From positions 1 to 64,000 of the forward strand of contig MQRK01225091.1 in assembly GCA_001938485.1 (NCBI GenBank): a DNA stretch of 64,000 bases, read 5' to 3'. How positions within the stretch are numbered: the stretch's first letter is position 1; each line of letters starts with the position of its first letter. Below, in pieces: positions 11,818-58,204 of this stretch. Source of the stretch: Girardia tigrina. Lineage: Eukaryota. A program made the position numbers and the translations under genes. The notes under the pieces were generated by a model. The model searched no databases and was not told where the DNA came from. It worked only from the letters and a program-made list of their open reading frames with translations.

Positions 11818-13135
11818 GTTAATCAAGGAGTCAACAAAACCGCAGAAATCTGGTGATCGAGATGAGCGAGTCGAGGAGCGCGGATGATGGCAGTAAGATT
11901 ACGTTGAATTTGAACCCCCGCGTCCCGCAGATCATTCCCCAGTACCAACACACCGCGGGCATCACGCTGCGCCCGCTCTCCCACCAACAAATTGTGTTCA
12001 TATTTTTTTATAAAAACTTTTTATTGTTTTCAAAATGTATTTATTGACTAATTTATGTATTCAAGTTAATTAATTTTACAATATTTGTTTATCCTTCTAG
12101 TGTTTTGTTTCACCTATCATCTTTTCTCCTAAAAACATTAAAGCACTTTTAAGGAAAAAGACTGTCAAGCATGTCGAGAATTGATTGAAAAAATCGACTC
12201 TGATTGACAACAATCTTCCATTTTCTTATATTAATAAAATTAACTCAAATATTACGTGTTTTCATGTCTCATGAAATTTAAAAAAAGCAAAAGGATAATT
12301 ACCTTCAACTTGGTGTTAAAGATCTATCATAAATCTATTGACACACGACTATAAATAAAGATTCCTGTACAGAATCGTCAGGGTAAACAAGAAACTGTCT
12401 CAGAATATACATTAAGCAAAGGAAAGTGAGGATTACCTGACGCTGAAATCAAGAAAGAAGTAGGAACTACGAAACATTAAATCAAAGACTAATTCACTGG
12501 ATATGCTGAAGGAAACAACAATTTATACTGAATAAAATGGTCATCAGCAATCAAAACCAGGGCAACAAGGCCAAGCGATCCTACTTGGTTACCTGCAAAG
12601 CAGTATAAGGCAAACATCCTGAAAGGCGTCCTAAATCTCTAATGGAAAGTTCATCAGCATCTGGACATTAAATAATAAATCACTACTTTTCATAGTCGTA
12701 TTTCCATCCGATGAGATGCAAATCCTATGACAATCAGGACACTCTCGAAGTATGGCTGAAAATTCACTTCGACACCAAATTAGGCGAAATGGCATTAATT
12801 TATCCAGTCATGTGTCCGTATGTCGTTTCTATCGTAATTCATTTCGAAAAAGACGAAGAAAAAATATATTTAATATTTCGTGTCATAGAAACGTAACTAC
12901 TAAAGAATAAAAACCCACAATCATTTCATTCCGGCAGTATAGTTATATCACTTCAGGACATATGCTTCAACAAAGCAACCAAATTGAATTTAAATTTCAT
13001 AATAAAAAGCTTAATTTTCAATAAGTTCCTTGAAAAATATTTTTTGAAGAAACCCTCCCGTCAACGTCGTCCATAAATTTCTAAGGTTTGACTGCAATCA
13101 ATGTCATAGTTTCTGAGTTCATACGGAGTACACAC

Positions 13136-13237: not shown

Positions 13238-13634
13238 AATATGATTAGATGAATCACCTTGCACGTTTAAGCATGGTTTATGATGCTTTATTAACAATGC
13301 TTCGGCGATAATCCTTTCATAATTTGTGTCAAAATTATTTAAAATCACTTTAAAATCTTTATTGTAATCCATAAGATTACCTTTACATCTTTTAATATGG
13401 CTCAATATCGAACTATTTGCTGAACATACTCAATCGAGTAGAAATAGTTCGATATTGAGCCATATTAAAAGATGTAAAGGTAATCTTATGGATCACAATA
13501 ATGATTTTAAAGTGATTTTAAATAATTTTGACACAAATTATGAAAGGATTATTGCCAAAGCATTGTTAATAAAGCATCATAAACCATGCTTAAACGTGCA
13601 AGGTGATTCATCTAAACATATTAAAGTTTTTTAA
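13238..13634. mobile_element. Penelope-like 3' fragment with inverted pseudo-LTR (palindrome)
   Basis: Arms ~13247-13418 and 13442-~13613 are near-perfect reverse complements. Plus-strand 13419-13634 reads AEHTQSSRNSSILSHIKRCKG...DFKVIL...ERIIAKALLIKHHKPCLNVQGDSSKHIKVF* (GIY-YIG C-terminus). (TA)n lies on both sides. Confidence 0.9.
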
Positions 13635-14780: not shown

Positions 14781-14799
14781 TGAAATTTATTATTATTAT

Positions 14800-15307
14800 T
14801 ATTAAGAACACCAACATGGGTTTTCGAACTTTTATTTTCAATACAATCAGAATTGTCTTTTGGACAACTCTCAGCAAAACTCTCGTCATTCGACATCGAT
14901 CTAAATTGATGAATTTTAGTTAATGTATTTTAATAAACAATTTTTTCATTATTTTCAAATTTTATTTTTAAAGTTCAAATTTTGTAATTTTAGTAATAAT
15001 TTTATCTACATATTAATTTTATTTAAAAAAATGATTTTATGTAAAGAAAGAACATTTATTTAATTTAAAACTTAGTTAAAACTATTTACTTTATATAAAT
15101 TTTGAATATGAAAATTTGAAACGATTTAATATTTTTAAAGTTTTTTAAATATCTTATGCTGTACTTTAAAATGCAAATTATACTCAAATAATTATCTATC
15201 GTGAACATCTAAAATATCAATTTTCCATCTGGGTGGGAGAAACACATTTCCAAATACTAAACTCAACATACAAAATGCAACATAACAAATTTAAAATATT
15301 CCTCACA
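14800..15307 (-). repeat. TGTGAGG-family dispersed repeat, copy A (Cys-rich ORF start at 14896)
   Basis: Begins tgtgaggaatatt, carries tgtgtttctcccacccagatgg, then MSNDESFAESCPKDNSDCIENKSSKTHVGVLNN. Closely similar to 27968-28503 and 29028-29539. Confidence 0.85.
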
Positions 15308-15631
15308 ATTATTTTTATATATGAAATTGTATACGCCATCTTGCCATGAATGGGAGTCGTGACTATTGTGAACTTTCTAAACTACAAAATTTAGGTTCTA
15401 GGTGCTTTGACCACAGGTGCTTTGACCATAGGGGCTTTGTCCATAGGGGTTTGTCCACAGCGGAGATTTGACCATAGGGGTTTGTCCACAACGGGTGTTT
15501 GACCACAGGGGGTTTGACCATAGTTGATATATATATATATACACTATATGAGAACAAAGAATTTGTTTGTTTTTGATCCCCATTAAGGCTAGTGCCAGGC
15601 CTACTAGATTTAATATTAAACAGAAAGTATT

Positions 15632-16190
15632 CACATACATCATCATCAGCAATATTTGGAAATTTAGTATTTTAATATTTGTATAGTTCTCCATGATTTT
15701 GGCTTGTGTGGGCTAGAATCTAATATTTTAATTGTTATTAATAATATGATTTTAAAATGTATATTAAGTTTAAATAGAATATTTTTTTAATGTATTTTAT
15801 TTTATTAAAGTATTATTGGGTAATAATGGAAAAAATATTTTAATTAAAAATTTTAAGTATTGAAATGACCTTAATGGGCAAAGTAAACTAATTTCAAATT
15901 TAAAAATTTTTAATTAAAATATTTTTGCCATTATTACCCAATAATACTTTAATAAAATAAAATACATTAAAAAAATTCTATTTAAACTTAATAAACATTT
16001 TAAAATCATATTATTAATAACAACTAAAATATTAGATTCTAGCCCACACAAGCCAAAATCATGGAGAACTATACAAATATTAAAATGCTAAATTTCCAAA
16101 TATTGCTGATGATGATGTACGTAATCATCGAAACATGTCCAATAAATATATAAAAGAAGCTTTAATCAAATTATATTTTAAAAATATTAA
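15632..16190. repeat. About 230-bp-arm inverted repeat (PLE pseudo-LTR fold-back)
   Basis: 15636-15866 is the reverse complement of 15891-16119 with few mismatches. The unit is homologous to 44276-44532. Confidence 0.9.
16101..16144 (+). ncRNA. Minimal type-I hammerhead ribozyme
   Basis: TATTG-CTGATGA-T-GATG(tacgtaat)CATC-GAAAC-AT-GTC-CAATA: helix I TATTG/CAATA, complete core, palindromic ACATGT helix III and a GUC cleavage triplet. Confidence 0.85.
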
Positions 16191-16309
16191 AAGCTGTGGA
16201 CAAACCATCTATGGTCAAACCCCCACTGTGGACAAACCTCCTGTGGTCAAACCCCCTATGGTCAAAGCACATGTGGTCAAAGCACCGCGTACCAAAATTT
16301 ATTTTCTTG

Positions 16310-17220
16310 TACGTGCAAATGTGTTCCACTTCTGCTCTTCGATGAATGTTATCACTTCAGTTACACCCCTTGGATAGTAATAAATCGTGTTACTTTCGAA
16401 CCTACATTATCCGAGTTTTATATGAAGCTTCATCCACTGATATGGTGTCGACCAATCTTGATGTTTAATTGTCCGATAGGTCAACACAACAGATTTATCA
16501 TAATGTAAATATTCATGAGACTATTTATTTTCAGTATCAAGAAACGCTTGAAAAAATCTTCCTTGCGAGGGGCTTTTCTCTACGAGTTTCCTCTTTCTTT
16601 CTTACTAAATGAAATGACTCAAAACCATTTTAGTAGTTGGTGTATTATTTCTTGCATCTTTAAATCAATTTTGATAGAATGAGAACCACATATCATTTAT
16701 ATACGAAATCACTTTCATTTTTTCCATTTTTTTATAAAACACTCAAACATACTACTACTTGATGCCAACTTAAGAATACCAAGATCTTCTTCAACTTGCT
16801 CTCCTTTGACTTAGAAAAGAAAAATTAAATGCTTAATAATATTTTATCACACAAGCATCCAACACATAATTAAAACATTTTTGCCGAATTCCTTCAAAAA
16901 GCCCCTCGTATAGCTTCCGAAGCATCGATATCAAACATTTGAAATTAGTAGGCTCTTTTGAACTATCTAAAATTGTTTGAAATATACAAATTTAAAGTCA
17001 TTCTTTCTTTCATTCAAACAAACAGCAATGTAAATCGCATGAAAGGGTCGATCGATACCAGTAATACAAATAATCAACACTGATATACCTTTCCAATTCC
17101 ACTTATATGTTGCATCAGCATCCAATTTGTTCGACTTGTAAACATTTTTAGTCAATCATTTTGTCGAAATGAATTATCTTCAAATTTAACCTCTTCATTA
17201 TCATCATCAACAAACAGCCT
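16310..17220 (-). pseudogene. MULE transposase core relic
   Basis: LDADATYKWNWKGISVLIICITGIDRPFHAIYIAVCLNE, and further downstream NNTPTT../NGFESFHLVRKKEETRRE. Many stops and frameshifts. Confidence 0.8.
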
Positions 17221-19646: not shown

Positions 19647-19950
19647 ATAATATTATGACAAAACGAAAAAAAACACAAATTTGAATTTCAATTATAAAGA
19701 ATAATAAAAATAAGCAAAATATACATTTATAATAAACAAAATTTAGACACAATTTCCGCTTCTTTTCCTAATTTAACAATCATTTTATAACAAAATTATT
19801 GTTAATGAATTTTGACCTTTACTTTAAATATATTATTATTTTACGTTAATTTTAAATTCAAAAAATAATATTTAATTCAACTTTAATTTTAAATCTTTTC
19901 AAAAACTAAAATGAATATTTTTTTAATATTTAAAATTTTTCGAAAAACCA

Positions 19951-20214
19951 GGTCTCAAGACAAAAATGAATTTTAAATCAGCTTATATAAGCTAGCAGTG
20001 ATTATGTCATCATTGGATTATTATGTCATTTAAACAAGCTTAATAGAGTTTTTGAGAGATCGATTTGGACATTAATCATAGGATCTAAAGATCTGATATA
20101 AAGTGCTTCACATGCCACCCTCTCCCAATAGTTCTTAAAACGAGCAATCTATTGATGACATAATTCCTGCTTACCGATATAAGCAAATTTAAAAGTAATT
20201 TTTTTCTTGAGACC
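19951..20214 (-). mobile_element. Penelope-like 3' fragment with inverted repeat
   Basis: Minus 20026-20148 reads IARFKNYWERVACEALYIRSLDPMINVQIDLSKTLLSLFK*. 19951-20012 and 20153-20214 are diverged inverted copies. Confidence 0.8.
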
Positions 20215-20589
20215 TATTGATGACTGTTATAACATCTTAAAAAATAAAAATTTATTTTTTTTATAAATTGCGTATTTAATTTACCATAAATTTTAAATAT
20301 TTAATTCTTTTTACCTAGATTTATTCTTTTGTAAATTTATTTTAAATGTTAAATTATTGAATCTCGATCAGCTGAATGAAAATTAACAAATTTCTCATAA
20401 AGATAAAAGTATAAATTTGGAAAAATTATTTCTAATTGTTAGATGAATTTTAATTTTCAAAAAATATTTATTAATGCAACAAAAAAATTATTAAAACAAA
20501 TTTTCGTTTTTATTTTATTATGTTTTTTAAATTTTCTAGATATATATTTTTTCTAGATTTATATTTTTCGTTAATTGATTTACATTTTG

Positions 20590-23207: not shown

Positions 23208-23733
23208 ACATATAAAGACGAGATTCTTTATGAATCAGGAATAAGGAAGCTACCGATAAGATAGTAGAAAGAGATTGAAAATAGTATACAGTATATCGGG
23301 TAATCTTATCTGTACAATCGTGACATTTTTTATGATAATTGTAATGTTTTACCTTTCCAACACCAGTAAAGTAAATCAGATTCAGCACAAATAAAATATT
23401 ATATGAGTATATATGTATGTGTATATTTGTGTGAATATATATACGATTGAACAAGTGATTTCTTTAGTCGTTTTTTGTGAGATTTCGTGGATGATATTGT
23501 TTATGTTTGGTATGCGCCTCAACTTTATTTGTAGTATTTTATTTTTATATTTATTTTTTTATCTAATTATTTATTATTATTACCCGTATTTAAATAGTTA
23601 TTATCATTTACTTACCTAAAATTATCCATGGATAATGATAATTACCATGGGATAATACAACTTCAAAAATAAAATCAATAAATAATAGAATTTAAAAAAT
23701 TAATTAATAATTATTATTCGCTGTTTAATAATA

Positions 23734-25010
23734 TTAGGTTGGTCGAAAAATAATGGCGGTTTTGGGACACAAACTTCAAAGACGTGCAAATTCACAGAAA
23801 CAAAAGTTTATTAATCAAAGTATGAACCGTTGGCATCAATACATTTTTGCCAACGAGAAACAAGTTCTTTTATTCCATCAGCATAAAATGTATCGGTTCT
23901 CGAAGCGACGAATTCTTGGAAGGCATTTTCAGCATCATTTTGGTTTTTGAAAGTTTTTTCACGTAGGAAGTTGTACAAATGTCTGAAAAAGTAGAAGTCC
24001 GTTGGCGAGAGGTCTGGTGAATATGATGGATGAAGCAGGGTTTCATAGCCCAACTCATTAAGCTTTTGAAGAGTCCCTTTTGAAATATGAGATCTAGCGT
24101 TATTATGAAGAAGGATGGGACTTTTTTCATTGACCAATCCCGGACAAAAGGGTTTCAATTTCTTATGCATTTCATCAATTTCATGACAGACCTCTCCGCT
24201 GTGATTGTTTCACCTGGATTCAAGAAACTATAGTAGATGATTCCAGCATCACACCACCAAACTGTCACCATAACCTTACGGGGTGTTAGTTTCGGTTTTG
24301 GAAAGTGTNNNNNNNNNNNNNNNNNNNNNNNNNNNNNNNNNNNNNNNNNNNNNNNNNNATCCATTTCTCATCACAGGTAACAATACGATCAAGAAATGGA
24401 TCGTTTTTATTGCGAAGATGATTGACAGAACAAATTTCATAGCGTCGGTTCTTTTGATTTTCATTCAAATCACGTGGGACCCATTTATCAAGTTTTTTGA
24501 TTTTTCCAAGTTGTTTTAAATGACCTAGGACTGTTGAATGACTAATGCCCAACCCATCTGCAAGTTCTCTGCTTGTTGTATGGGGATCTGTTTCCACCAT
24601 TGTCCTCAAATTGTCGTTGTTCACAGCAACTGGACGACCACGACCTTCTTCATCTTCAAGGTTTTCATCTTCATCAGAAAATTTTCAGAACCATCATTGC
24701 ACTATGCGCTCAGAAGCTGTTCCCTTTCCAAACGCTTTATTGATATTGTGAGTCGTTTCTGCTGCTTTACGACCCAGTTTGAATTTGTACAAGAAAATTG
24801 CTCGAATTTTAATTTTTTCCATTATTAATTTAGCACCGTAAATATTCTAAAAAATAACAGCAATATGTTAATAATGGCTATATGAATATACAGCTAGGCA
24901 TAAGAATTCAAATAATATCTAACACTAATGCATTTAAACTTATATACATATAAAAGTAGATAAACAAAGTATAAAGCTCAAAAACCGCCATTATTTTTCG
25001 ACCAACCTAA
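23734..25010 (-). mobile_element. Mariner DNA transposon, full-length, same family as 1286-2541; disrupted transposase about 23811-24822
   Basis: Perfect TIRs ttaggttggtcgaaaaataatggcggtttt with TA TSD. WVPRDL, IVTCDEKW, HNNARSH, HPSYSPDLSPTDF and RWQKCIDANGSYFD are present, with frameshifts. Confidence 0.95.
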
Positions 25011-25429
25011 TACACGATTGCTACAATTATTATTAGTTTTGCTAACGTGGATAATGTATTCCAACAAATACTGAGAATCCTAAAGAAAATACTCATTTTC
25101 GACAACTTATCAATTAAGTAATTACTAGATTAAATCATTGTAACTTTTTGCAACTCTTGAATGCACTCTAGATTAGTTTCGTTCGTTTTCAATTCGTTTT
25201 CAAGCTTTTCCTTACATAAAAGTATCTATTTGTTGTTTTTTTTAAATGAAACTGCAATTTTTTCAAAAAATACTCATAAATGCAACTTTAATTGCAACTT
25301 CAGATGAAAGATAGTATTTTTTTCCACTATGTTGACCTTTTCATACAACCTACTTATGATTTTTTTTCTAAATTTTATTTGATTTTTTCATTTTTTCTGA
25401 TATTTACCCGAATTTTTCATTTTTTAAAA

Positions 25430-25552
25430 TTTTAATTTCCGAGACTTAATTTTTCTAGACTTAATTTTCCAAAACTTAATTGTCTGAGTTTTAATTTTCC
25501 GATACTACATTTTCCGTGACTTAATGTTTGAGATCGAAATGTCGTGCCCCCC
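25430..25552. repeat. Sub-repeated TIR arm of a MULE-like element
   Basis: Tandem ~15-bp units gacttaattttcc ending in aaatgtcgtgccccc. The partner arm is not seen. Confidence 0.45.
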
Positions 25553-27967
25553 TGGACACGATTGTAAATCAAGAAATATTAAAAATTAGATATTAAAATT
25601 GTAAATAAAAATATATTTACATTAAAAGTAAATGTTTTTAATATTATTTTTGTTTAAATTTATCACTAATTACTAAAGAAATTTCAATTTCAAAAAAAGA
25701 AACTAAAAGAAATAAAAACCTCCTAATACGACTATTTCTGTATACAAAATAAAGATACCTTTATTTGACTGTCCATCCATTGAACTGTTAACGAAAAGTA
25801 ACTTTACGAATTTAGTTTATTTAGTAATTTCTTATTAGACCTTTTCCTGTTTATTTTTGTCTGTGATATTCTTTTTTTCTTCTTTCCGTTGTAAATTTAA
25901 AGTGTTTAATACAATTTATATCCTTTTAACTATTATTATTATTATTTGTTCTATTACATATACTTTGCAAAATTGTAAAATTGAATAAGTCTAATAAAGA
26001 TAATTAGTCCGACTACAACAATTTTTTTTTATTTTTATTTCAATTTTACAACAATAATTAAAAAAATACCTTTTGACTTTTAACCAATTAAATAATTTAT
26101 ATTGTTTAAAAAAATATTTAATTAACTTTGTCAAAAACGTTTTTTTTATTTAATTCATTTTTGAAAAATTAAAATAAAATATGATAATTTTATTTTGTAT
26201 TAAAAATTTATAAAACAAAGTAATTTCTGTTGTAATTTCTCACAGTATTAAATTTTTATGTTATAAAAGAAAGACTCAATTTTGAGTCACTTCGAGCGTA
26301 CACAGCTCAAACGCAAACAAAAAAGAAAATATTATTAAAAAGTAATAAATTTCCCTAAAGAGACTCAATAAAGTAAAATGAATAAAGTTACAAAATTATT
26401 GATTAAAAGTTTTGGCTGACCATAACATCCTACTCATTAAAATTTTATTATTTATTTAAAAAATAAAAGAAAAAGCCAAAAATAATGTTTATTAATTTAT
26501 ATTTTAAATTTAATATTTTTTTTTATAAAATTAAAAAAAAACTTTGATAAATTTTCTTTTATAATCCAAAATTTTACAACGATTACTTGTAAATAAATAA
26601 ATAAATATAATAAATTATAAATAAATAAATGTTTGTTTATTTATTTTTTATCGTAATTTCTTAGAATTTTATCACAAAAACAGATTGATAAATATTTTCA
26701 ACTCAAATTGTTCTGGGAGAATTAAAATAAAATTATTATTATTAAAAAAATAATTTTCGGTAATTGTAATTATTAAAAAAAACCAAATTGCATTTAAAAT
26801 AATAAATTATTATAAGAAAATAATTCATTGAAAAATTTGTTTATTAAAGATAATTCATTATCCATTTGCTTTTCAATAATCAAATTTTATTTTTTAATAA
26901 AAAAATATTATTTCATATAACAACATATTTCTTCAGTTATTTTTTCTTGTTCTTTCTTAAGAATTTTGTTTGATTTCATCAAGAACCAGTGTAATCAGAA
27001 TGAGTGATATGAAATAGATTATTTGAACCAGAAATATTTATTTCCTGACAAGTTGAGCAGCAGATTGAAGATGGATTAAGGCTTGTTAGAATCTGATTGA
27101 ATGGTTGGGAATTATCTGATAAAGATTCCAGTCCAAGACTAATCATGGCGGGTTGTAAACATCCACACTGGTTGTAGCTAATACTTGGTAGAAGAGTGTA
27201 ACAACACATTTGAGGGTTTAATTGTTTCAAGAGTTGATTGGCTGAAATTATATTTCATTAAAAAACAGAAATTGTTTAAGGTTTTTGAATAATAATAATA
27301 ATAATAATAAAAATATAATAACTGAATTTAATTTTTTTCATGTATATAACATCCAAAATAATAGACTACTTTACAGTGAAATCAACAATCAACAATAAAA
27401 AATATTAAATTTATTAGGTTCAGATTCACAATTTAAACTTATGACAAAAATTTATTTCTATCACAAAAAAGTTTTTTAAACAAATGTTTTCGAGGAACCA
27501 AAGCAAATTATATTTTTTTACACAAACCCTTATAAATAAAAAATATATATAAATATAGATATTGTTATTTAATTTATTAAGAATTTAAATTTTATACTCG
27601 TTTTTTTTTAAATTATAAAGGTATTTTATTAAAACTGTCATAAGATTTTATTTAATTTTTTATTAAATTTCCGTTTTACTTTTACATTTAATTTAATCGC
27701 GTTAAAATTATATTTTTATATTTCGATAAAATCATAATTTAAAAAATAAAATTAAAATCATATTTATTTAATTTATTTTACTTAAAGTTTTTTAAATTAT
27801 GATAAATTTAGATAAAAGTTACAAAATAATATTTCAGTTTATTAACATTTTCAAAATAAAATAATAAATTTTATAATTATTTGTATTTTACTTCAATTAA
27901 ATATTTCAAAAATAAAATATTAAATTTTATATTCTATGCAAAATTAAAATTTACTTTATTACTTTAT

Positions 27968-28503
27968 AATTATTAAGAACACCAACATGGGTTTTCAAAC
28001 TTTTATTTTCAATACAGTCAGATTTGTCTTTTGGACAACTCTCAGAAAAACTCTCGTCATTCGACATCGTTCTAAATTGATAATTTTTTTGTTAATGTTT
28101 TTAATAAACAATTATTCGAACAAATATTTCATTATTTTCTGATTTTATTTTTACAGTTCAAATTTTGTAATTTTAGTATCAATTTTATTTACATATTAAT
28201 TTTATTTAAAAAATATTTTATTGAAAGAAGAAACATTTATTTAATTTAAAACTTAGTTAAAACTATTTATTTTATTTAAATTTTAATATGAAAATTTGAA
28301 AAGATTTAATATTTTTTAAGTTTTTTAAATATCAGCATGATGTACCTTAAAAATATAAATTATACTCGAATAACTATTTATCGTGAACATCTAAAATATC
28401 AATTTTCCATCTGGGTGGGAGAAACACATTTCCAAATACTAAACTCAACATACAAAATTCAACAAACCAATTTCAACATACCAAATTTCAAATATTCCTC
28501 ACA
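27968..28503 (-). repeat. TGTGAGG-family copy B
   Basis: Highly similar to copy A; ATG at 28067 gives MSNDESFSESCPKDKSDCIENKSLKTHVGVLNN. Confidence 0.85.
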
Positions 28504-29027
28504 ATAATAAATCTTTTTACTGACTCTAAATTAAATTTTAATAAACCTGCTGTAAAATTTATTTTATTTTTACATAAAATAATTTGTACATTAAATTGGA
28601 AAAATTTTAACATATATATAACTCTTCTTTACGAAATTTAATTATTTAATTATTGATTTGATCAAATTTTAAGTTCGAAAATTTTATGAACTCACCAAAG
28701 CTCCTAACAAAATTAATGTTTATTATACTATGTATACTATGTATATTATGTATACTGTGTATATTAACAATGACTTAGAAGGATTTGGAAAGAACGAAGA
28801 TATTCAAAACTGTATTACAAAACGTATTTTTTGCACTTTTCGAATATTTTACTATACTGAAAGTCATCATTTCTAACCACGCACAGTTAAGAAAACATAA
28901 AGTTCTCTTGAATCGACATTTAGTATGATATTTCAGTCCAATTGAATCGATTAAATTTCGAATAGTTTTGGATTTGATCTGAAGTCTCAAATTGAGTTAT
29001 TGCATTGATTGGAAGAAGTTTCATATC

Positions 29028-29539
29028 TGTGAGGAGTATTTTAAATTTGGTATGTTGAATTTTGTATGTTGAGTTTAGTATTTTGAAATGTGTTTCTCCC
29101 ACCCAGATGGAAAATTGATATTTTGGATGTTCACGATGAATAATTATTCGAGCATAATTTGCATTTTAAATTACAGCATAAAATATTTCAAAAACTTTAA
29201 AAACATTAAATCGTTTCATATTTTAATATTAAAAATTTTAATAAAATAAATAACTTTCAACTAATTTTTACATTGATTAAATGTTTTTCTTTAAATAAAA
29301 TCATTTTTAAAATATAATTAATATGCAGATCAAATTATTACTAAAAGTATAAAAACTTTAAAAATAAATTCTGAAAATAATTAAACTATGTTCGAATAAT
29401 TGTTTGTCAAAAAACAAAAAATTATCAATTTAGAGCTATGTCAAATTCTGAAAGCTTTGCTGAGAGTTGTCCAAAAGACAATTCTGATTGTAATGAAAAT
29501 AAATGTTGGAAAATCCATGTTGTTTTCTTAATAATGTGA
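29028..29539 (+). repeat. TGTGAGG-family copy C (divergent from copy B)
   Basis: tgtgaggagtatt...ctcccacccagatgg; ORF 29438-29539 MSNSESFAESCPKDNSDCNENKCWKIHVVFLIM*. Confidence 0.85.
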
Positions 29540-30610: not shown

Positions 30611-30653
30611 GTGATCTGAAGATGACGGTAAAACCATCGAAATATATTATCAC
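30611..30653 (+). ncRNA. Minimal type-I hammerhead ribozyme (second sequence type)
   Basis: GTGAT-CTGAAGA-T-GACGG(taaaa)CCATC-GAAA-TATATT-ATCAC: helix I GTGAT/ATCAC, palindromic ATATAT, AUU triplet and one mismatch in helix II. Confidence 0.75.
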
Positions 30654-32339
30654 AACAAAATATATTTTGACATTAGATATATGTTTATATTTTAAACCCC
30701 CATTTGCAGGAAAATAAGCTATGACTTGAAGCTATTAATTTGTCCTAATACAAATCAATTTTATCATAATTATATTTGAAAATTCGCATTTTTGGAGATA
30801 CTTGGATAATATTTTCTTAATGTTCCTTGAATTTGATATATTCAGATCGTTTGTCTAATTTTCTATGCATCCATGAAGTCTATAAATTGGTATTCCATTT
30901 ATTTTAATATATATTTCTGGGTAAAGTTGAACGAAATATTTGCTTTTAAGATACAGAAATTTCTATTTTTTCTATGTTATCTGACATTTGACTATCATTT
31001 TTGGTACATATTAACAAATTAACTTGAAATAAGAAGCAAACATTTATTTTATTGAGCTCTTGAGCGAGTGAAACAAGTGTCATTTTACTGTTTATTACAG
31101 AAACCAATTCCAAACAAGTGTAAGTCGTGAATATAAAATAGAAAATTAGAACTGGTTATATTATTTATTATGAATATAAATTGTATTTACAATATTAACA
31201 AGAAAATATTTTTGATTTTTTAAAAAATTTTCAACATTATTTTTTTTAATTTATTTTGTTTATTTTCAATTTATTAATAATTTATGGCTGAAGAGCTTTC
31301 AGAAAATATTATTGAGGATATAAAAATTTATAGTAATTTTTAAATGTTATTAATTTTTTTTGAAAGAATGTAAAATTAAATATGCCAATTAAAATGTAGA
31401 AAATTTTAAAATACGCAATTATTTGATGAACTAAAAGAAATTGTAAAATTAATAAACTTTCATAAAACGAATAAGTATTTGATAATGTTAGCGTAATTTA
31501 AATTTATAAAATGAAAATAAAATCAAATATTAATATTATAAGTGCATTTATTTATTTTGGTTTAAGATAATTTGTTTTATGAGATAAAACAATTTTTTAA
31601 TTATATTATATTTTAAATTATTTGACTGTCAACTACAAGATAAATCGAAGATAGCGTTTTTTTCTAGGACGCCGACTACGAGTAATTTTACACAGTGTTT
31701 ACTCTCCATATTCGTGCAGCTACTATTAAACTCGTAATATATCAGTGCTAATATGAGTAAATAGCTTCTGAGAAGAGAGCAAAAAAATAATGCTAGGTTA
31801 CATAACCAGAAAATTTATTAATAAATGAAAGCAAACTATAATTATAAAAAATATATTCAAAATATAAGTAAAAGAATAGTTTTATTATTTGCGAAACATT
31901 TTAAAACAATCGTTCATACAATGTTCGTGCGTCTCTTTACGTGTCGGACAACACATTTTTAGGCATTTTTTACTTGTATAGATTTATAACATGACTCTGT
32001 CAACCGCTGTGCTTTTCCGGACGGACCGATCCATTCAAAATACAGCCAATTTACTGATTGCTACTAAAATATTTAACATTTTTTTCATTTTTATTTGTAA
32101 GGATATTTTTGTTATAAATGTGTATGTGCCGAATTTATGGGGCCTCCTGTGGTCACACGTATTTGCGATCCCAAATAGGCACCTGCAAATCAATGGTATG
32201 TAATAAGTTTATACAAAGGTTCTTGGTATTTTTAAGTAAATTCTTTGAAAAATTTCAGAGAAAGTGCAAAAGACTATTTCACAAAGTAATCTATATCGAC
32301 ATCTAATATCAGTTGCCGGGAAATTTTTTACTAGATTGA

Positions 32340-40188: not shown

Positions 40189-40341
40189 CAGGGTGTCCCA
40201 AAAATATGTATACACATTAAAAATTTAATTTTATTGAATTTTATTGAATTTTATTTATGTTTAACTTTCATTAACATAATGAAAGTATAATAAAAGTTAA
40301 ACATAAATAAAATTCAATAAAATTCAGTAAAATTAAATTTT
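40189..40341. mobile_element. Palindromic Tc1/mariner MITE (right end lost in N gap)
   Basis: TA-CAGGGTGTCCCAAAAATATGTATACACATTAAAAATTT... is mirrored by ...aaatttttaatgtgtatacatattttt before the gap. Confidence 0.75.
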
Positions 40342-40887
40342 TAATGTGTATACATATTTTTNNNNNNNNNNNNNNNNNNNNNNNNNNNNNNNNNNNNNNN
40401 NNNNNNNNNNNNNNNNNNNNNNNNNNNNNNNNNNNNNNNNNNNNNNNNNNNNNNNNNNNNNNNNNNNNNNNNNNNNNNNNNNNNNNNNNNNNNNNNNNNN
40501 NNNNNNNNNNNNNNNNNNNNNNNNNNNNNNNNNNNNNNNNNNNNNNNNNNNNNNNNNNNNNNNNNNNNNNNNNNAAATTTTATTTACATGTGGCTTTAAT
40601 TGTACTTTAAGTGAATTCTGACTACAGTTTTTAATGCGATGTTCTAATAATAAATATATAAAATTGCTGGAACGAACAACTAAACAACATATTTATGTTT
40701 GAAAATCTCAATAAAATGTTTTGCTATTTGAAAAACAAATCATAAAAGTACTTGGCAAAGATTATTTAATTTGAAATTTTCTTTTCTATATCAAGTTAAT
40801 TGTTATACAAACTATTATTACAATTTCAGTTACTATTTTATAATTACTATAAATGTTGAAGGAGGTTTTCGATCGTAGAAGTATTTA

Positions 40888-41549: not shown

Positions 41550-42539
41550 TTATGTTAGAAAAGAAAGAAATGTGACCAATTTTATTCCACGATTTCTAAC
41601 TACAGAAAAGAGACCGAAACGGCTCGGAATATTAACAATGTGTTTGGGCAACATACCACTAATTTACGAACAGTACAACATTATTTTTACGAAGTTTCGT
41701 AGTGGCAACGAGAGTCTTGAAGATAAAGAACACGGTAGTCGACCATCACAAGTTGACGACGACCATATGAAGTAGTTAATCAATGCCGACCCGCATAAAA
41801 ATTCACGGAAAGGCCCTCAAGTCCATCTGAAGAAAATCAAGACAGTGAAAAAACTGGACATGTCGATGCCGCACGAATTAAACAAAAATCTAAAAAATCG
41901 TCGTTTTCACGTGTGTTCTTTTCTGCTTTTGCGTAATCAAAGTAACCCGTTTCTATATCGAATTGTAACATGCGATGAAAAATGGATTCTAAACGACACC
42001 CAGCGACGTTCAGCTCAGTGGTTCGATTTCAATGAGGCTCCAAAGCCTTTCCCGAAGCCAAAATTTCACCAAAAAAAGTCATGGTAACTGTTTGGTGGTC
42101 CGCACACGGTTTAATTCATTAAAGCTTCCTAAAACAAGGCGAAACAATTACAGCGGAAAAGTATTGTCAGCAAATTTACAAAAAGCACCAAAAACTACAA
42201 AAAAACAACCGGCATTACTCAATAGAAAGAGGCCAATTCTTCTGCATGACAACGCTCGTCCACATGTTGCAAGAAAGACCATGCTGAAGTTAAACGAACT
42301 GGAATATGAAACTTTGCCTCATCCTCCGTACTAAGCAGACCTTTTTCTTACAGACTATCAGCTTTTCAAACATTTCAGCCAGTTCCTTTGCAAAAAATGC
42401 TTCAGAAACCAAAGGAGATGCTGAAAAAGCCTTGGACGACTTCATCGCCCCCAGAACTCCAAAAATTTATGAAACTGGAATAAAAAAACTTGTTACCCGT
42501 TGGCAACAGTGTGTTCAATGTAATGGTTTTTATTTTTAA
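41550..42539 (+). mobile_element. Degenerate mariner element
   Basis: KFRSGNESLEDKEHGSRP, MPHELN, IVTCDEKWI, LLHDNARPH, LPHPPY and RWQQCVQCNGFYF over several frames. Confidence 0.9.
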
Positions 42540-43992
42540 ATAAACTTTATAAATAAATAAAAATAATAAACATGAAATAAAATAATGATAAAATAATCCA
42601 CAATTAGAAATAATATATTATATTAAATATTATAATAATAATTACGGATCTTGTAACAATATTATTTAATAAAAATAATGGTAATATGTCTTCAAAAACC
42701 CATTATAATAAAATTTATTTTTCGTAATCGCCTTTTATAATTTTAATGGGTTTATTTTATTTAAATTCAGCATTTTCTTAATAATAAGATCAAACAATTT
42801 TATAAATTCTGAGCGACAAAAAATCAACAAAAATGTAAATATAGCTCTCCTGAGAGAGATAATAAAAAAGTCGAAAATAGGTTGAATGAATTTTATAACT
42901 TAGCAATATTTATTGAAATTATTTCTTACTAATAAAAAAATATTATAATTTCTTCGAATAAATAAACAAATTGTATAAAAGATCAAAAATATTTATGTTA
43001 ATGTGAAAAACAACCATGACAAAAATAATTTAAAAAATATTATTTATTTGTTATTATATGATGAAATGTGTTTATATTTCCCTAAAATATATAATGGTAT
43101 TGTTTAAAAAATTGTATTTATTTATTTATATTAATTATGAATTTTTTAAATAATGTTCAATAGAATATTCAGAAATGTTTTTGTAAATTATAGGATCATT
43201 TATTTTCTTCTAAGAATTTAAAAATATAAAAAGTGCAATTGCATACAGACAGCGGTTACTATGGACAATTCATACGTTCCTATAAAAAAAGATAAAAGTT
43301 AACTTGAAAGTGGTTCACTTTATCCTTTAATTGTATGGTAGTTGAAATAGAAAAGGATTTAAATATTGCAAATTTATGGTATAAATAATTTTTTATACAA
43401 TAATGAATTAAAATATTAAGAATTAAAAATAAAATGAACCTTTATTATTTGTAAAATCTTAAAATGGAAAATACAAGTTATTTAAATCAAAATATTTATA
43501 TGACTCCAGTCTCGATCGTTGATGTTTTCGATTAATTATAGAATAGATTCTCTTAGAATAAAGTTAAAGTTGATATTGAGATAGACAAATAATGTGATTT
43601 GTTAGATGGGGTCCTCAATAGTTTTGTTTCGGTAAATCTTTGGCAATAGTGTAGATAAATTAATGGTTTAATAATAGAACAAGGACGTCTGTAGGATAAT
43701 TTCGTTCGTTAATAATTTTTGTTATTGATGAGATAACTCCAAATGAGTAAAAAATTATCTAATATGAGTTAAAAACAGCTCACAATAAAAAATAATGCTA
43801 ATTAGTTACGACTTATATTCCATAACTAAATCAATATCACTATGAAATTTGTATAATGTATTTAAATATTGCATTTAAATATAATATAAACAATTACTAT
43901 TGAATTAAAATTTTTATGTAATTTATTATAAATGTAACACTTCTGATTGTGGCTGCTTATAGTATGGCTCAACAGATAGGACTAATATTAAA

Positions 43993-44048
<56 letters not shown>

Positions 44049-44079
44049 AATAATTTGATTAAAGCTTTTTTTATATAAT

Positions 44080-44123
44080 TATTGGTAATTTTTCGATGTT
44101 TACATACATCATCATCAGCAATT
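44080..44123 (-). ncRNA. Hammerhead motif, mutated helix III and cleavage site
   Basis: ATTG-CTGATGA-T-GATGT(atgtaa)ACATC-GAAA-AATTAC-CAAT; the GUC is replaced by UAC. Confidence 0.6.
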
Positions 44124-44451
44124 TTGGGAAAATCGTCATCGCAAAACCCGGATTAGCGAGTACTCGCAAATGAGTCGATCGAGTAAGGTTCTTGATCATT
44201 GGTTATGTTGTAAGGATAGAACCTCATCCATTCAAAAGATGAGTTTTCTGTTCTACAAAAGGGTTTTGATTCACATTAAAATATTTCAAATTTTTAATTA
44301 AAATATTTTTTGCCATTATTACCGAATAATATTTTCATAAATAATAATGTTTAATTTTTTTGATACCTTTTAAAGTAAATTATATCTATTAAAATTGTAT
44401 TAAAATTGTTTTATTCAAACAATTCAATATTCATTTACTAAACATCCGAAA

Positions 44452-44493
44452 ATTGCTGATGATGATGTATATAAACATCGAAACATGTCCAAT
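44452..44493 (+). ncRNA. Minimal type-I hammerhead ribozyme
   Basis: ATTG-CTGATGA-T-GATGT(atataa)ACATC-GAAAC-AT-GTC-CAAT; intact core, same family as 16101. Confidence 0.85.
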
Positions 44494-44565
44494 AATTATA
44501 TAAAAAAAGCTTTAATCAAATTATATTTTCGAAATACTAAACTTGCGTTCACAATATTAAATACG

Positions 44566-45815
44566 TTAATTATATCATTTCAATAATTTCTTGTTTCTCG
44601 TCTTTCTTTTCTTTTGAATAATATGTTTTTCGTAATGTAGTAAAATAATCGGTTTAATATTAATTGTTTCGTCTTCTATTTACAAATAAAATCGGAAAAT
44701 ACGATAATAACACTAAATGAAAAAAAGGTTTTTTTATACAATGATCACAAGGATAAAAGGGAAATGATTCAAAGGGAATAACGAACTAATAAAATTTTAC
44801 TTTGATCAAATAAAGTTCTTCGTTTTTTAATTAAAAACTTATCTCTGCCAAATTTCTTACAAGCAAAACTAATTGTTTCGTTGTCCTTTGTATTACGACA
44901 GTTGATCAATTTTTTATTCTTAAAGTAACTGATTCCGATTACTTTTATCGCTTCACAAAGTTTATGGTTATTTTCTTATTAATTATTATAAATTTCTTTT
45001 TAAATTGTTCGTATTATAAATTTAGTTAATTATAATTATATAATTTTGGCGATTACGGGGGAGGCAAATTTTCTATTTGACATGACTTGTTTTTTTCTTT
45101 GATTTAACATTTTCATTTAATTTTCTTTCTTTTACCCTTTTTTCAGTTAACCAAGAAAAAAGAAAAATGTAAATAAAAACACAAAAACAGCAGGACATGT
45201 AAATACCTTTGGATAAATAAAAATAAACGACAAAAAAATAAAAAATACAAAATTCAACAGGCTTAGACATGAATACAGATTGTAATATAAATATTAATAT
45301 AGAAATTAATGTTGATATAAATATTTATTATTTTAAATGGATTCCATATATAAATTTTCATATGACGTGGTAGTGTTACTAAAATATATATTAAAATAAC
45401 ACGATTTCAATTTATAATTTTTATTTGAAAACATGTTTCACTCCTTTTTGGTGTCTTCAATTCTATATTTAATTTATTGCTAACTAATAAAATTTCTAAT
45501 TACTTTTCAAATAAATCTAAAACACAGATTACATCTAATAAATCTAATTAAGATTTAAGATATTGGATGAAGATTTTAAGAAACATACTAAAAAATAGAA
45601 TCATGCATTATGATAATATTGTTAAATAGCAAAATACAAATTATCAAGAAAAAAGTAAACGTAGTTAACATTAATTAAATCATTTCAATAATTTCTTGTT
45701 TCTTGTCTCTTTCTTTTCTTTTGAATAATATGTTTTACGTAATGTAGTAAAATAATCGGTTTAATATTAATTGTTTCGTCTTCTATTTACAAATAAAATC
45801 GGAAAATACGATAAT
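44566..45815. repeat. About 145-bp direct repeat (44566-44708 and 45671-45815)
   Basis: catttcaataatttcttgtttct...aataatcggtttaatattaattgtttcgtcttctatttacaaataaaatcggaaaatacgataat occurs twice. Confidence 0.85.
45427..45463 (-). ncRNA. Degenerate hammerhead motif
   Basis: GAA-tTGAAGA-cacc(aaaaa)ggagt-GAAACATGTT-TTC, with a C3-to-U core change. Confidence 0.45.
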
Positions 45816-56920: not shown

Positions 56921-58204
56921 TTAGGTGTATAACTTAGTTTGTGGATTTTTTTGCAGAACAGACAAGTTTATTTATATGACATAATAAGTTTTATTCTAAT
57001 CAAAATATTTTCCATAGTTTATTATGACTTTCGACATTCTTGCAGGCAAATTATGAATTCCATTGAAAAAAAAGTTTTGGTCTTTTGATGCGATCCATTG
57101 TTCCAGTTATTTTTTATATGTTCCTGGTTTCTGAAGTGCTGGTCCCGAAGAGCGCTTTGCATTGATCGGAACAGACGATAATCTGATGGGGCACAATCTG
57201 GTGAATAGGCAGCATGCGGTAGAATTTCCCATTTAAGTGCTTCCAAAGTGTTTTTTATTTGTTTTGCGACATGTGGCCGAGCATTGTCATGGAGCAAAAT
57301 CACTTGCGCTGTTTGTTGGCTGGAATAGGACGTTTTTCCTTCAATGCATCGTTCAATTTCATTAACTGTTGTTGGTAACGTTCTGCATTAACAGTTTCAT
57401 TCGAATTCAGCAGCTCATAGTACAGTACACCTTTCTGATCCCACCAAATGCACAACATAACCTTGCTTCCATGAATGTTTCTTTTTGCTGTTGACGTGGA
57501 CGGTTCGCCGGGATGATTCCACGATTTCTTGCGTTTAGAGTTAACATAATAAATCCATTTTTCATCTCCAGTCACAATATTATGCAAAAACGACCACCTT
57601 CGTTGTCTTGTAAGCAATGAATTGAATATCAGTAATCGACTTTCAATGTTGGCTTGATTCAATTCATGTGGTATCCATTTTCCTTCTTTTTGAATCATTT
57701 TCATAGCATGTAGACGTTTACTTATGGCTGCTTGAGTAACATTTAACTGTTTTGCAAACTCTTTCTCTGTTTGAGTAGAATCTTCCTTCAGTAATGATTC
57801 CAAATCTTCATCTTCGAATCTTTTTGGTTGACCAGAACGCTCTTTGTCACTTACGTCAAAATCTCCACTTTTGAAACGTTAATACCAGTTCTCGAAAGTC
57901 TGTTGAGTTGGTGCATGTTGACCATAAGTTTCTTCAAGAAGCCGAAAACTGTCTGCAGCTTTTTTCTTGTGATTAAATCAAAACAGTAGTGCTTCCCGCA
58001 AATGCTGTTTTGTTGGTATGAAAGTTGTCATGCTAAAACGTGATTAAAAATATGTTTATGACGCATTTAAGGTCAATGACTTATTTAATTTTAATGCCTC
58101 GATTTCAGCACTTTAAAAATCTGTACGTACGACTGTAAAATAATGCTTATTACAAATGTTACACCATCTCTTAGAAAATCCAAAAAACTAAGTTATTCAC
58201 CTAA
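56921..58204 (-). mobile_element. Mos1-like mariner, full-length, disrupted transposase about 56996-58031
   Basis: TIRs ttaggtgtataacttagtttgtggatttt / aaaatccaaaaaactaagttattcacctaa with TA TSD. MTTFIPTKQHLREALLF, WIPHEL, IVTGDEKWIYY, VMLCIWWDQKGVLYYELL, LLHDNARPH and YSPDCAPSDY are present, with stops and frameshifts. Confidence 0.95.

Follow-up and report, generated by a model that had tools for sequence, protein, structure and literature searches.

Organisation of the locus

The window analysed here is a stretch of 64,000 nucleotides of Girardia tigrina DNA, AT-rich (GC content of 18-36% in 2-kb bins) and interrupted by eight runs of N. It holds a unit of 900 bp, at 15394-16293, which is bounded by sub-repeated terminal inverted repeats (TIRs) and an 8-bp target site duplication (TSD), and which contains no N run. 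These boundaries agree with those proposed in a previous sequence-only reading of the same DNA. The interior is mainly occupied by a fold-back of a Penelope-like element (PLE) carrying a hammerhead motif. Coordinates of the unit, of its parts and of a related copy elsewhere in the window are given in Table 1.

Table 1. Features of the 900-bp unit, its flanks and a second copy of the same PLE family
Feature	Position	Strand	Description
TSD, left copy	15386-15393	+	AAAATTTA; 9 bp, starting at 15385, when the shared C is included
Left TIR	15394-15523	+	7-nt terminal motif and 8 sub-repeats of 14-17 nt each
(AT)7.5 run	15527-15541		Inner edge of left TIR; ~90 nt from PLE
88-nt segment	15542-15629		Original MITE interior or filler copied in with PLE
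Inverted PLE arm	15630-15872	-	Last 10 codons and stop (15872-15840), 3' UTR, truncated hammerhead (15656-15633)
Direct PLE arm (pseudo-LTR and tail)	15873-16191	+	Last codons and stop (to 15917), 3' UTR, hammerhead, candidate ORF start
Minimal type I hammerhead	16101-16144	+	Predicted cleavage between 16139 and 16140
Candidate PLE ORF start ("tail"), 19 codons	16135-16191	+	Open here and in 44485-44541
Right TIR	16192-16293	-	7-nt terminal motif and 6 sub-repeats; abuts PLE 3' end
TSD, right copy	16294-16301	+	AAAATTTA
Flank (target DNA)	15313-15385 and 16302-17200	-	Decayed MULE-type transposase gene
Second copy of the same PLE family	44046-44541		No TIRs; inverted 86-bp ends, endonuclease fragment 44131-44276

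Transposon debris is abundant in the window and includes mariner transposase fragments and a fragment of a non-LTR-type reverse transcriptase (RT). The mariner relics (1283-2543, 23731-25012, 41776-42548 and 57025-57878) belong to at least two families. A decayed ADE2/PAICS-like sequence, possibly a pseudogene, is present on the plus strand at 11180-11830; its 11180-11419 part is most similar to animal proteins, with five hits of 49-56% identity. A repeat of about 530 bp has copies at 14786-15312, 27955-28508 and 29028-29535 that are 84-87% identical, two of them inverted about 520 bp apart, and shorter pieces of one end occur at approximately 19512, 22770, 30397 and 51702. An array of about six 15-bp units with a GC-rich tip, at 25432-25560, may be an isolated foldback TIR from a different family, and the 24900-27500 interval contained no partner for it. 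Short fold-backs with arms of 74 bp and 86 bp are present at 40200-40361 and 3987-4197. A bacterial promoter scan, a method not applicable to this DNA, found 9 promoters where 7.1 were expected, which is chance level.

The DNA transposon and its target

The length of the TSD is 8 bp, or 9 bp if the C at 16293 is assigned to the flank. Of 62,511 window positions, 36 carry the 8-mer AAAATTTA. Random pairs of positions 900 nt apart shared an 8-nt match in 0.017% of 200,000 trials with fixed ends, and allowing for 25 alternative boundaries raises this proportion to 0.37%. Over the part that they have in common, the two TIRs align with 87 matches, 12 mismatches and 3 gap events. The differences fall at 2 of 60 positions in the repeat cores (defined from these same TIRs) against 9 of 37 outside them. 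Both termini begin with GG, and the 7-nt terminal motifs differ between the ends at 3 of 7 positions. Beyond the unit, no TIR units were found in the window save one 10-nt and one 13-nt chance match; the TIR pattern was also absent from a bacterial and archaeal genome collection, a result that is uninformative on a eukaryotic genome.

The short (TA)n run that had been placed beside the hammerhead palindrome does exist, as (AT)7.5, but it adjoins the left TIR. At that distance from the PLE end it is at best a candidate for the PLE target. The 88-nt segment that follows matches other parts of the window over 18 nt at most. It contains a small hairpin near 15599-15617, and its positions 15579-15588 form a 10-nt inverted match with the fold-back junction (15869-15878; E of 3.9 for the window), probably by chance.

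The unit lies in a decayed MULE-type transposase gene: the 16970-17155 part of the flank has an ESM Atlas score of 0.92 to clusters with PF10551/PF21056, and Pfam returned nothing in six of six flank frames. The reading frame of the flank continues across the empty site, which fits the boundaries of the unit. As far as tested, the flanking transposase gene is unrelated to the TIRs. The locus thus appears to be built of three nested layers, a PLE in a DNA transposon in a dead transposase gene, of which the two flanks may both be parts.

Family of the outer element

By its sequence architecture the outer element is most likely a non-autonomous MULE of the Muta/Phantom type and of the foldback kind. 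Its TSD falls in the range of 8-10 bp found in these MULEs, and its long TIR is composed, as in them, of a terminal motif and subterminal tandem repeats. In the Muta families of Aedes, according to the available part of PMC5225508, the TIR measures about 130 bp and combines a short terminal motif with 15-bp sub-repeats, and the TSD is of 8/9 bp; these families group with Phantom (PMC6446971, excerpt). Compared in register with the Muta1 end primer, the left end agrees at 11 of 18 positions (chance 0.002, from random 18-mers of TIR composition) and the right end at 8 of 18.

The closest known systems are Muta1 and Muta5 of Aedes aegypti, type 2 foldback MULEs which, in the excerpts of PMC5225508, PMC5499845 and PMC6446971, have TIRs of more than 100 bp built of a terminal motif and 12-15-bp sub-repeats, an 8/9-bp TSD, and non-autonomous copies whose repeat numbers are unequal and whose interiors are foreign. 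All of these traits recur here. The element differs from Muta1 and Muta5, as there described, by having no transposase and by terminal motifs that are non-palindromic and unequal between the ends; its interior is a retroelement insert rather than a fragment of a host gene.

No coding sequence was found inside the unit and no transposase between these TIRs. Since a linked transposase is missing and Merlin elements share the GG ends and the TSD length, membership in the MULEs is likely and no firmer than that: the MULE label of the sequence-only reading keeps the Muta-type architecture and the left-end match in its favour. The alternative is that the outer element is a Merlin or another non-autonomous element with 8-9-bp TSDs, the nesting being otherwise unchanged. 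Merlin TIRs start with GG, may be imperfect and are flanked by TSDs of 8 or 9 bp (PMC8101967, in part), and TIRs without linked transposase would be compatible with this assignment; GG termini with an 8-9-bp TSD are present here, a combination that does not discriminate between the two. The whole set of terminal motif, 15-bp sub-repeats, 130-bp TIR and 8/9-bp TSD fits what is described for Muta5 and Muta1, and the left-end match to Muta1 also counts against Merlin, which we regard as quite improbable. Pfam found no IS1595-type DDE transposase in 119 stop-free stretches of at least 62 aa (of 198 listed, at least 55 aa long).

The interior is a Penelope-like fold-back

The palindrome announced for the interior is real. 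Its arms (15633-15873 and 15884-16122) measure 241 bp rather than about 230 bp, with 229 matches, 9 mismatches and 3 gap events, and instead of nearly filling the interior it accounts for 490 of its 668 bases (73%); the PLE as a whole accounts for 562 of 668.

That the interior derives from a PLE, as had been proposed, is borne out by its coding remnants. The reference protein was reached in two steps: P0008 was found with a frame of the 44046-44541 copy (one match, E<=0.001), and P0009 with P0008 as query (one match among 525 candidates). P0009 carries an RT domain and aligns to P0002 over 495 aa, through the endonuclease, with 49% identity; in P0002, Pfam identifies RT and GIY-YIG, while on P0008 and P0009 themselves GIY-YIG was not called directly. 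No relatives of P0009 were found in the bacterial and archaeal genome collection, again uninformative on a eukaryotic genome. The left arm encodes 10 of 10 residues identical to the P0009 C-terminus, and 13 of 17 residues encoded at 15864-15914 in the right arm match it. Because the C-terminal peptide is read at the apex in both arms, the arms meet head to head; the joint is at 15872/15873, with the right arm starting 12 nt further upstream. Each arm has the order ORF end, UTR, hammerhead. On these sequence grounds the interior is the 3' end of an endonuclease-bearing PLE. We also considered whether the interior might be another MITE, nested in the first, whose (TGA)n "cores" had arisen by chance; this was rejected: the apex encodes the PLE C-terminus and the hammerhead descriptor described below beats shuffled sequences.

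The right arm is prolonged by 19 open codons that begin at an ATG inside the hammerhead and end at 16191. This ATG, at 16135, would be the start of the PLE ORF; no homologous N-terminus was found for the codons of 16135-16191. This candidate tail is shared with the copy at 44 kb: 82 of 91 nt of the hammerhead-tail stretch are identical to 44451-44541 and the 3' end is at the same base. A shared tail with a common 3' end agrees with the pseudo-LTR plus tail described in the available part of PMC3846280. No TSD longer than 4 nt was found around the PLE insert.

Such a form is routine for PLE inserts. Head-to-head palindromes are reported as the commonest inverted form, and an ORF-start tail is described (PMC3846280, excerpt); inverted 5'-truncated copies are general among PLEs (PMC8557442, excerpt). 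Pen2/Pen2a of Adineta vaga (PMC3846280, with a scheme in PMC8557442, both in part) share with the present insert the inverted head-to-head junction, the 5' truncation, the tail on one arm, a pseudo-LTR that contains the hammerhead and is composed of ORF end, UTR and what is here a candidate ORF start, and, in some inserts, the absence of a TSD. Unlike Pen2/Pen2a as described there, only the last 10-15 codons are left here, RT and endonuclease being gone, and the host site is a DNA transposon.

The window holds further examples. The 44046-44541 copy, which came to light when the window was compared with itself and in which P0009 matched 44131-44276 with 34 of 39 and 15 of 15 residues (tblastn, E of 4e-20), contains two hammerheads, at 44452-44493 on the plus strand and a mutated copy at 44123-44080 on the minus strand, and abuts a (TA)25 run. 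No TIR units were found near it. Having the same 3' end in the absence of TIRs, it indicates that the PLE passenger moves by itself. At 13238-13631, a head-to-head fold-back of the endonuclease C-terminus represents a second PLE family (92-95% to P0002); it is flanked at either end by (TA)n, in one case beyond a gap. In a third relic, at 19950-20215, inverted ends of 70 bp enclose an endonuclease C-terminus. Other PLE endonuclease fragments are present at 5989-6156 and 45459-45530.

An amplification or assembly chimera could also produce a palindrome, in an assembly which is gapped by eight N runs and in which several fold-backs adjoin gaps (13238, 40361). We consider this highly improbable: there are 5 differences between the arms in the 219 positions outside the apex and additional ones at the apex, no gap lies within 15394-16293, and the junction falls in the last PLE ORF codons, as it does at 13238-13631, in a form documented for PLEs.

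The hammerhead motif

Positions in the hammerhead are numbered according to standard usage. The motif at 16101-16144 consists of a stem I of 5 bp, the core CTGATGA, one extra T, a stem II of 4 bp closed by G-C, GAAA, the self-complementary ACATGT and C17 at 16139. A descriptor of our own, written after the motif had been seen, finds two sites in the window, 16101 and 44452; 200 dinucleotide shuffles gave 0.005 sites on average. A loose core pattern finds 13 sites, three of them in this PLE family. The minus-strand copy, 15633-15656, stops in loop II and contains neither the GAAA nor the cleavage site. A Rfam scan of the whole window gave no hammerhead family (0 of 4 matches, E<=1). Isolated, the 16101-16144 stretch is no more stable than its shuffles (z of -0.67). 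The stems show no compensatory change in 10 pairs, in a set of three near-identical copies that is uninformative on this point.

The motif is of the type of the minimal hammerheads of metazoan PLEs, and the traits given in the available part of PMC4209133 are all present: the CUGANGA/GAAA/UH core, stems I and II, the additional nucleotide 9a, G10.1-C11.1 and a palindromic helix III. With 4 bp here and 5 bp in the 44-kb copy, stem II is shorter than in Schistosoma, where it has 7-8 bp. The same excerpt describes opposite-strand hammerhead pairs 100-700 bp apart, and in contrast to these pairs one of the two motifs is truncated here. The sequence-only reading of one intact and one truncated hammerhead therefore holds for a PLE-type motif and its shortened copy, with the reservation that the "intact" one is a minimal, dimer-type motif which Rfam does not recognise.

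Non-LTR retrozymes (bioRxiv 10.64898/2026.07.22.740005, in part) are likewise non-coding, PLE-related and equipped with a type I hammerhead. As described there, they are arranged in head-to-tail tandem with at least two complete motifs on one strand, whereas the present arms are head to head with one complete motif. We rejected this identification: no tandem array covers the interior, whose arms are in inverted orientation, and the second motif is incomplete.

Degenerate hammerhead-like motifs were also seen in other sequence families, at 30611-30654 and 6617-6650 on the plus strand and 6400-6374 on the minus strand. In the one at 30611-30654, stem I and a palindromic helix III are present, but stem II contains a mismatch, and the motif fails our descriptor.

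Predicted folding of the unit

Folded as DNA, the whole unit reaches -321.6 kcal/mol against -83 for shuffles (n=20). This is in line with the earlier view of the unit as a single giant hairpin, except that the PLE fold-back arises without the TIRs, so that the hairpin is the sum of two unrelated inverted repeats. In the predicted fold of a plus-strand read-through RNA, 16101-16122 pairs with 15654-15633. Forcing the hammerhead stems in the full transcript would cost about 30 kcal/mol, and the probability of stem I is about 1e-19, compared with about 0.25 without the left arm. When two copies were co-folded, a helix III dimer was not the best structure.

Minimal hammerheads need a tandem partner, single ones having shown no cleavage (PMC4209133, excerpt). 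Since the left arm is predicted to pair over the motif, the minus-strand copy has no 3' half and there is no tandem partner, the hammerhead of this locus is probably silent as a ribozyme. In Anolis a protein assists the hammerhead, and insertion in vitro does not require this motif (PMC11167929, excerpt). The transcript, if made, would provide a double-stranded RNA of about 240 bp directed against the PLE family and no active ribozyme.

Nested insertion or movement of the composite

The locus is best explained, and we think with good reason, by a one-off nested insertion of a PLE into a non-autonomous DNA transposon, the composite most likely not having multiplied. A presumed transposase acting in trans would have cut and pasted the non-autonomous foldback element by its sub-repeated ends, and transposition would have left the 8-bp (or 9-bp) duplication. 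An endonuclease-bearing PLE would then have inserted into this element by target-primed reverse transcription, the mechanism known from the literature, as a heavily 5'-truncated copy with an inverted second copy joined to it head to head. The insertion probably deleted inner MITE sequence, as suggested by the lack of a duplication flanking the PLE and by its abutting a right TIR two units shorter than the left one. The hammerhead would have arrived simply as part of the PLE pseudo-LTR. As no empty MITE copy was seen, we infer both the order of nesting and the deletion.

Divergence is 12% between the TIRs against 3.8% between the arms (Fisher p of 0.006, or 0.054 without the terminal 7 nt). It is unsafe to conclude that the MITE is older than the PLE, and the element is not datable as long dead, because the TIR differences lie mostly outside the repeat cores. 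Nor does the asymmetry of the TIRs prove that the element is immobile: with 3 repeats at one end and 7 at the other, Muta1NA1 still moves (PMC5499845, excerpt), so that 8 and 6 repeats here are no bar to movement.

The sequence-only reading had left two possibilities. One was that the unit had moved as a whole, which would require that a MULE transposase moved the 900-bp unit at least once after the PLE insertion and that a family of hammerhead-bearing fold-back MITEs exists. The termini would permit it, with GG at both ends, near-identical repeat cores (2 of 60 positions differ) and a perfect TSD. According to the available part of PMC5499845, Muta1 in yeast needs no more than one terminal motif and one repeat at each end, and asymmetric Muta ends still transpose; however, active Muta1 ends differ in linkers only, unlike the terminal motifs here, and Muta1 terminal mutations lower end joining. 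A precedent exists in the rice MULE Os0548, amplified to 107 copies with a nested MITE, while nested insertions in coding MULEs of maize were independent in 191 of 191 cases (PMC3903597, excerpt, for both). The single copy in 64 kb is weak evidence either way. Against such movement, the PLE passenger spreads unaided (44046-44541), and no duplication surrounds the PLE, which abuts the shortened right TIR. We judge it unlikely that the composite has moved. Pack-MULEs and MULEs amplified with a nested element, such as Os0548, resemble the locus in having foreign DNA between MULE TIRs; in contrast to Pack-MULEs, as far as the excerpt of PMC3903597 describes them, the capture here is best read as an insertion by the passenger's own enzymes, in one copy in 64 kb.

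The other possibility, a one-off PLE insertion into a MITE, is the one favoured by our results: a member of the same PLE family stands without TIRs at 44046-44541 and ends at the same base, and fold-backs are normal in PLEs. A DNA transposon spreading a ribozyme cassette is supported by no result, and the ribozyme is predicted to be locked in a duplex.

Significance

PLE fold-backs, opposite-strand hammerhead pairs and MULEs that amplify with a passenger are all already known (PMC3846280, PMC4209133 and PMC3903597, each in the part available). Among the literature titles listed we found no case in which a class II element spreads a class I hairpin; this speaks only weakly for the absence of such cases. 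As a single insertion the locus has little import: it provides a tidy example of a PLE fold-back and a new Muta-like TIR for a repeat library. Should the composite be multi-copy, which seems doubtful, a MULE transposase would be spreading a 240-bp PLE hairpin with its hammerhead, in other words ribozyme seeds or double-stranded RNA triggers against the PLE family; this would be a class II element spreading a class I hairpin able to seed small-RNA silencing of the PLE.
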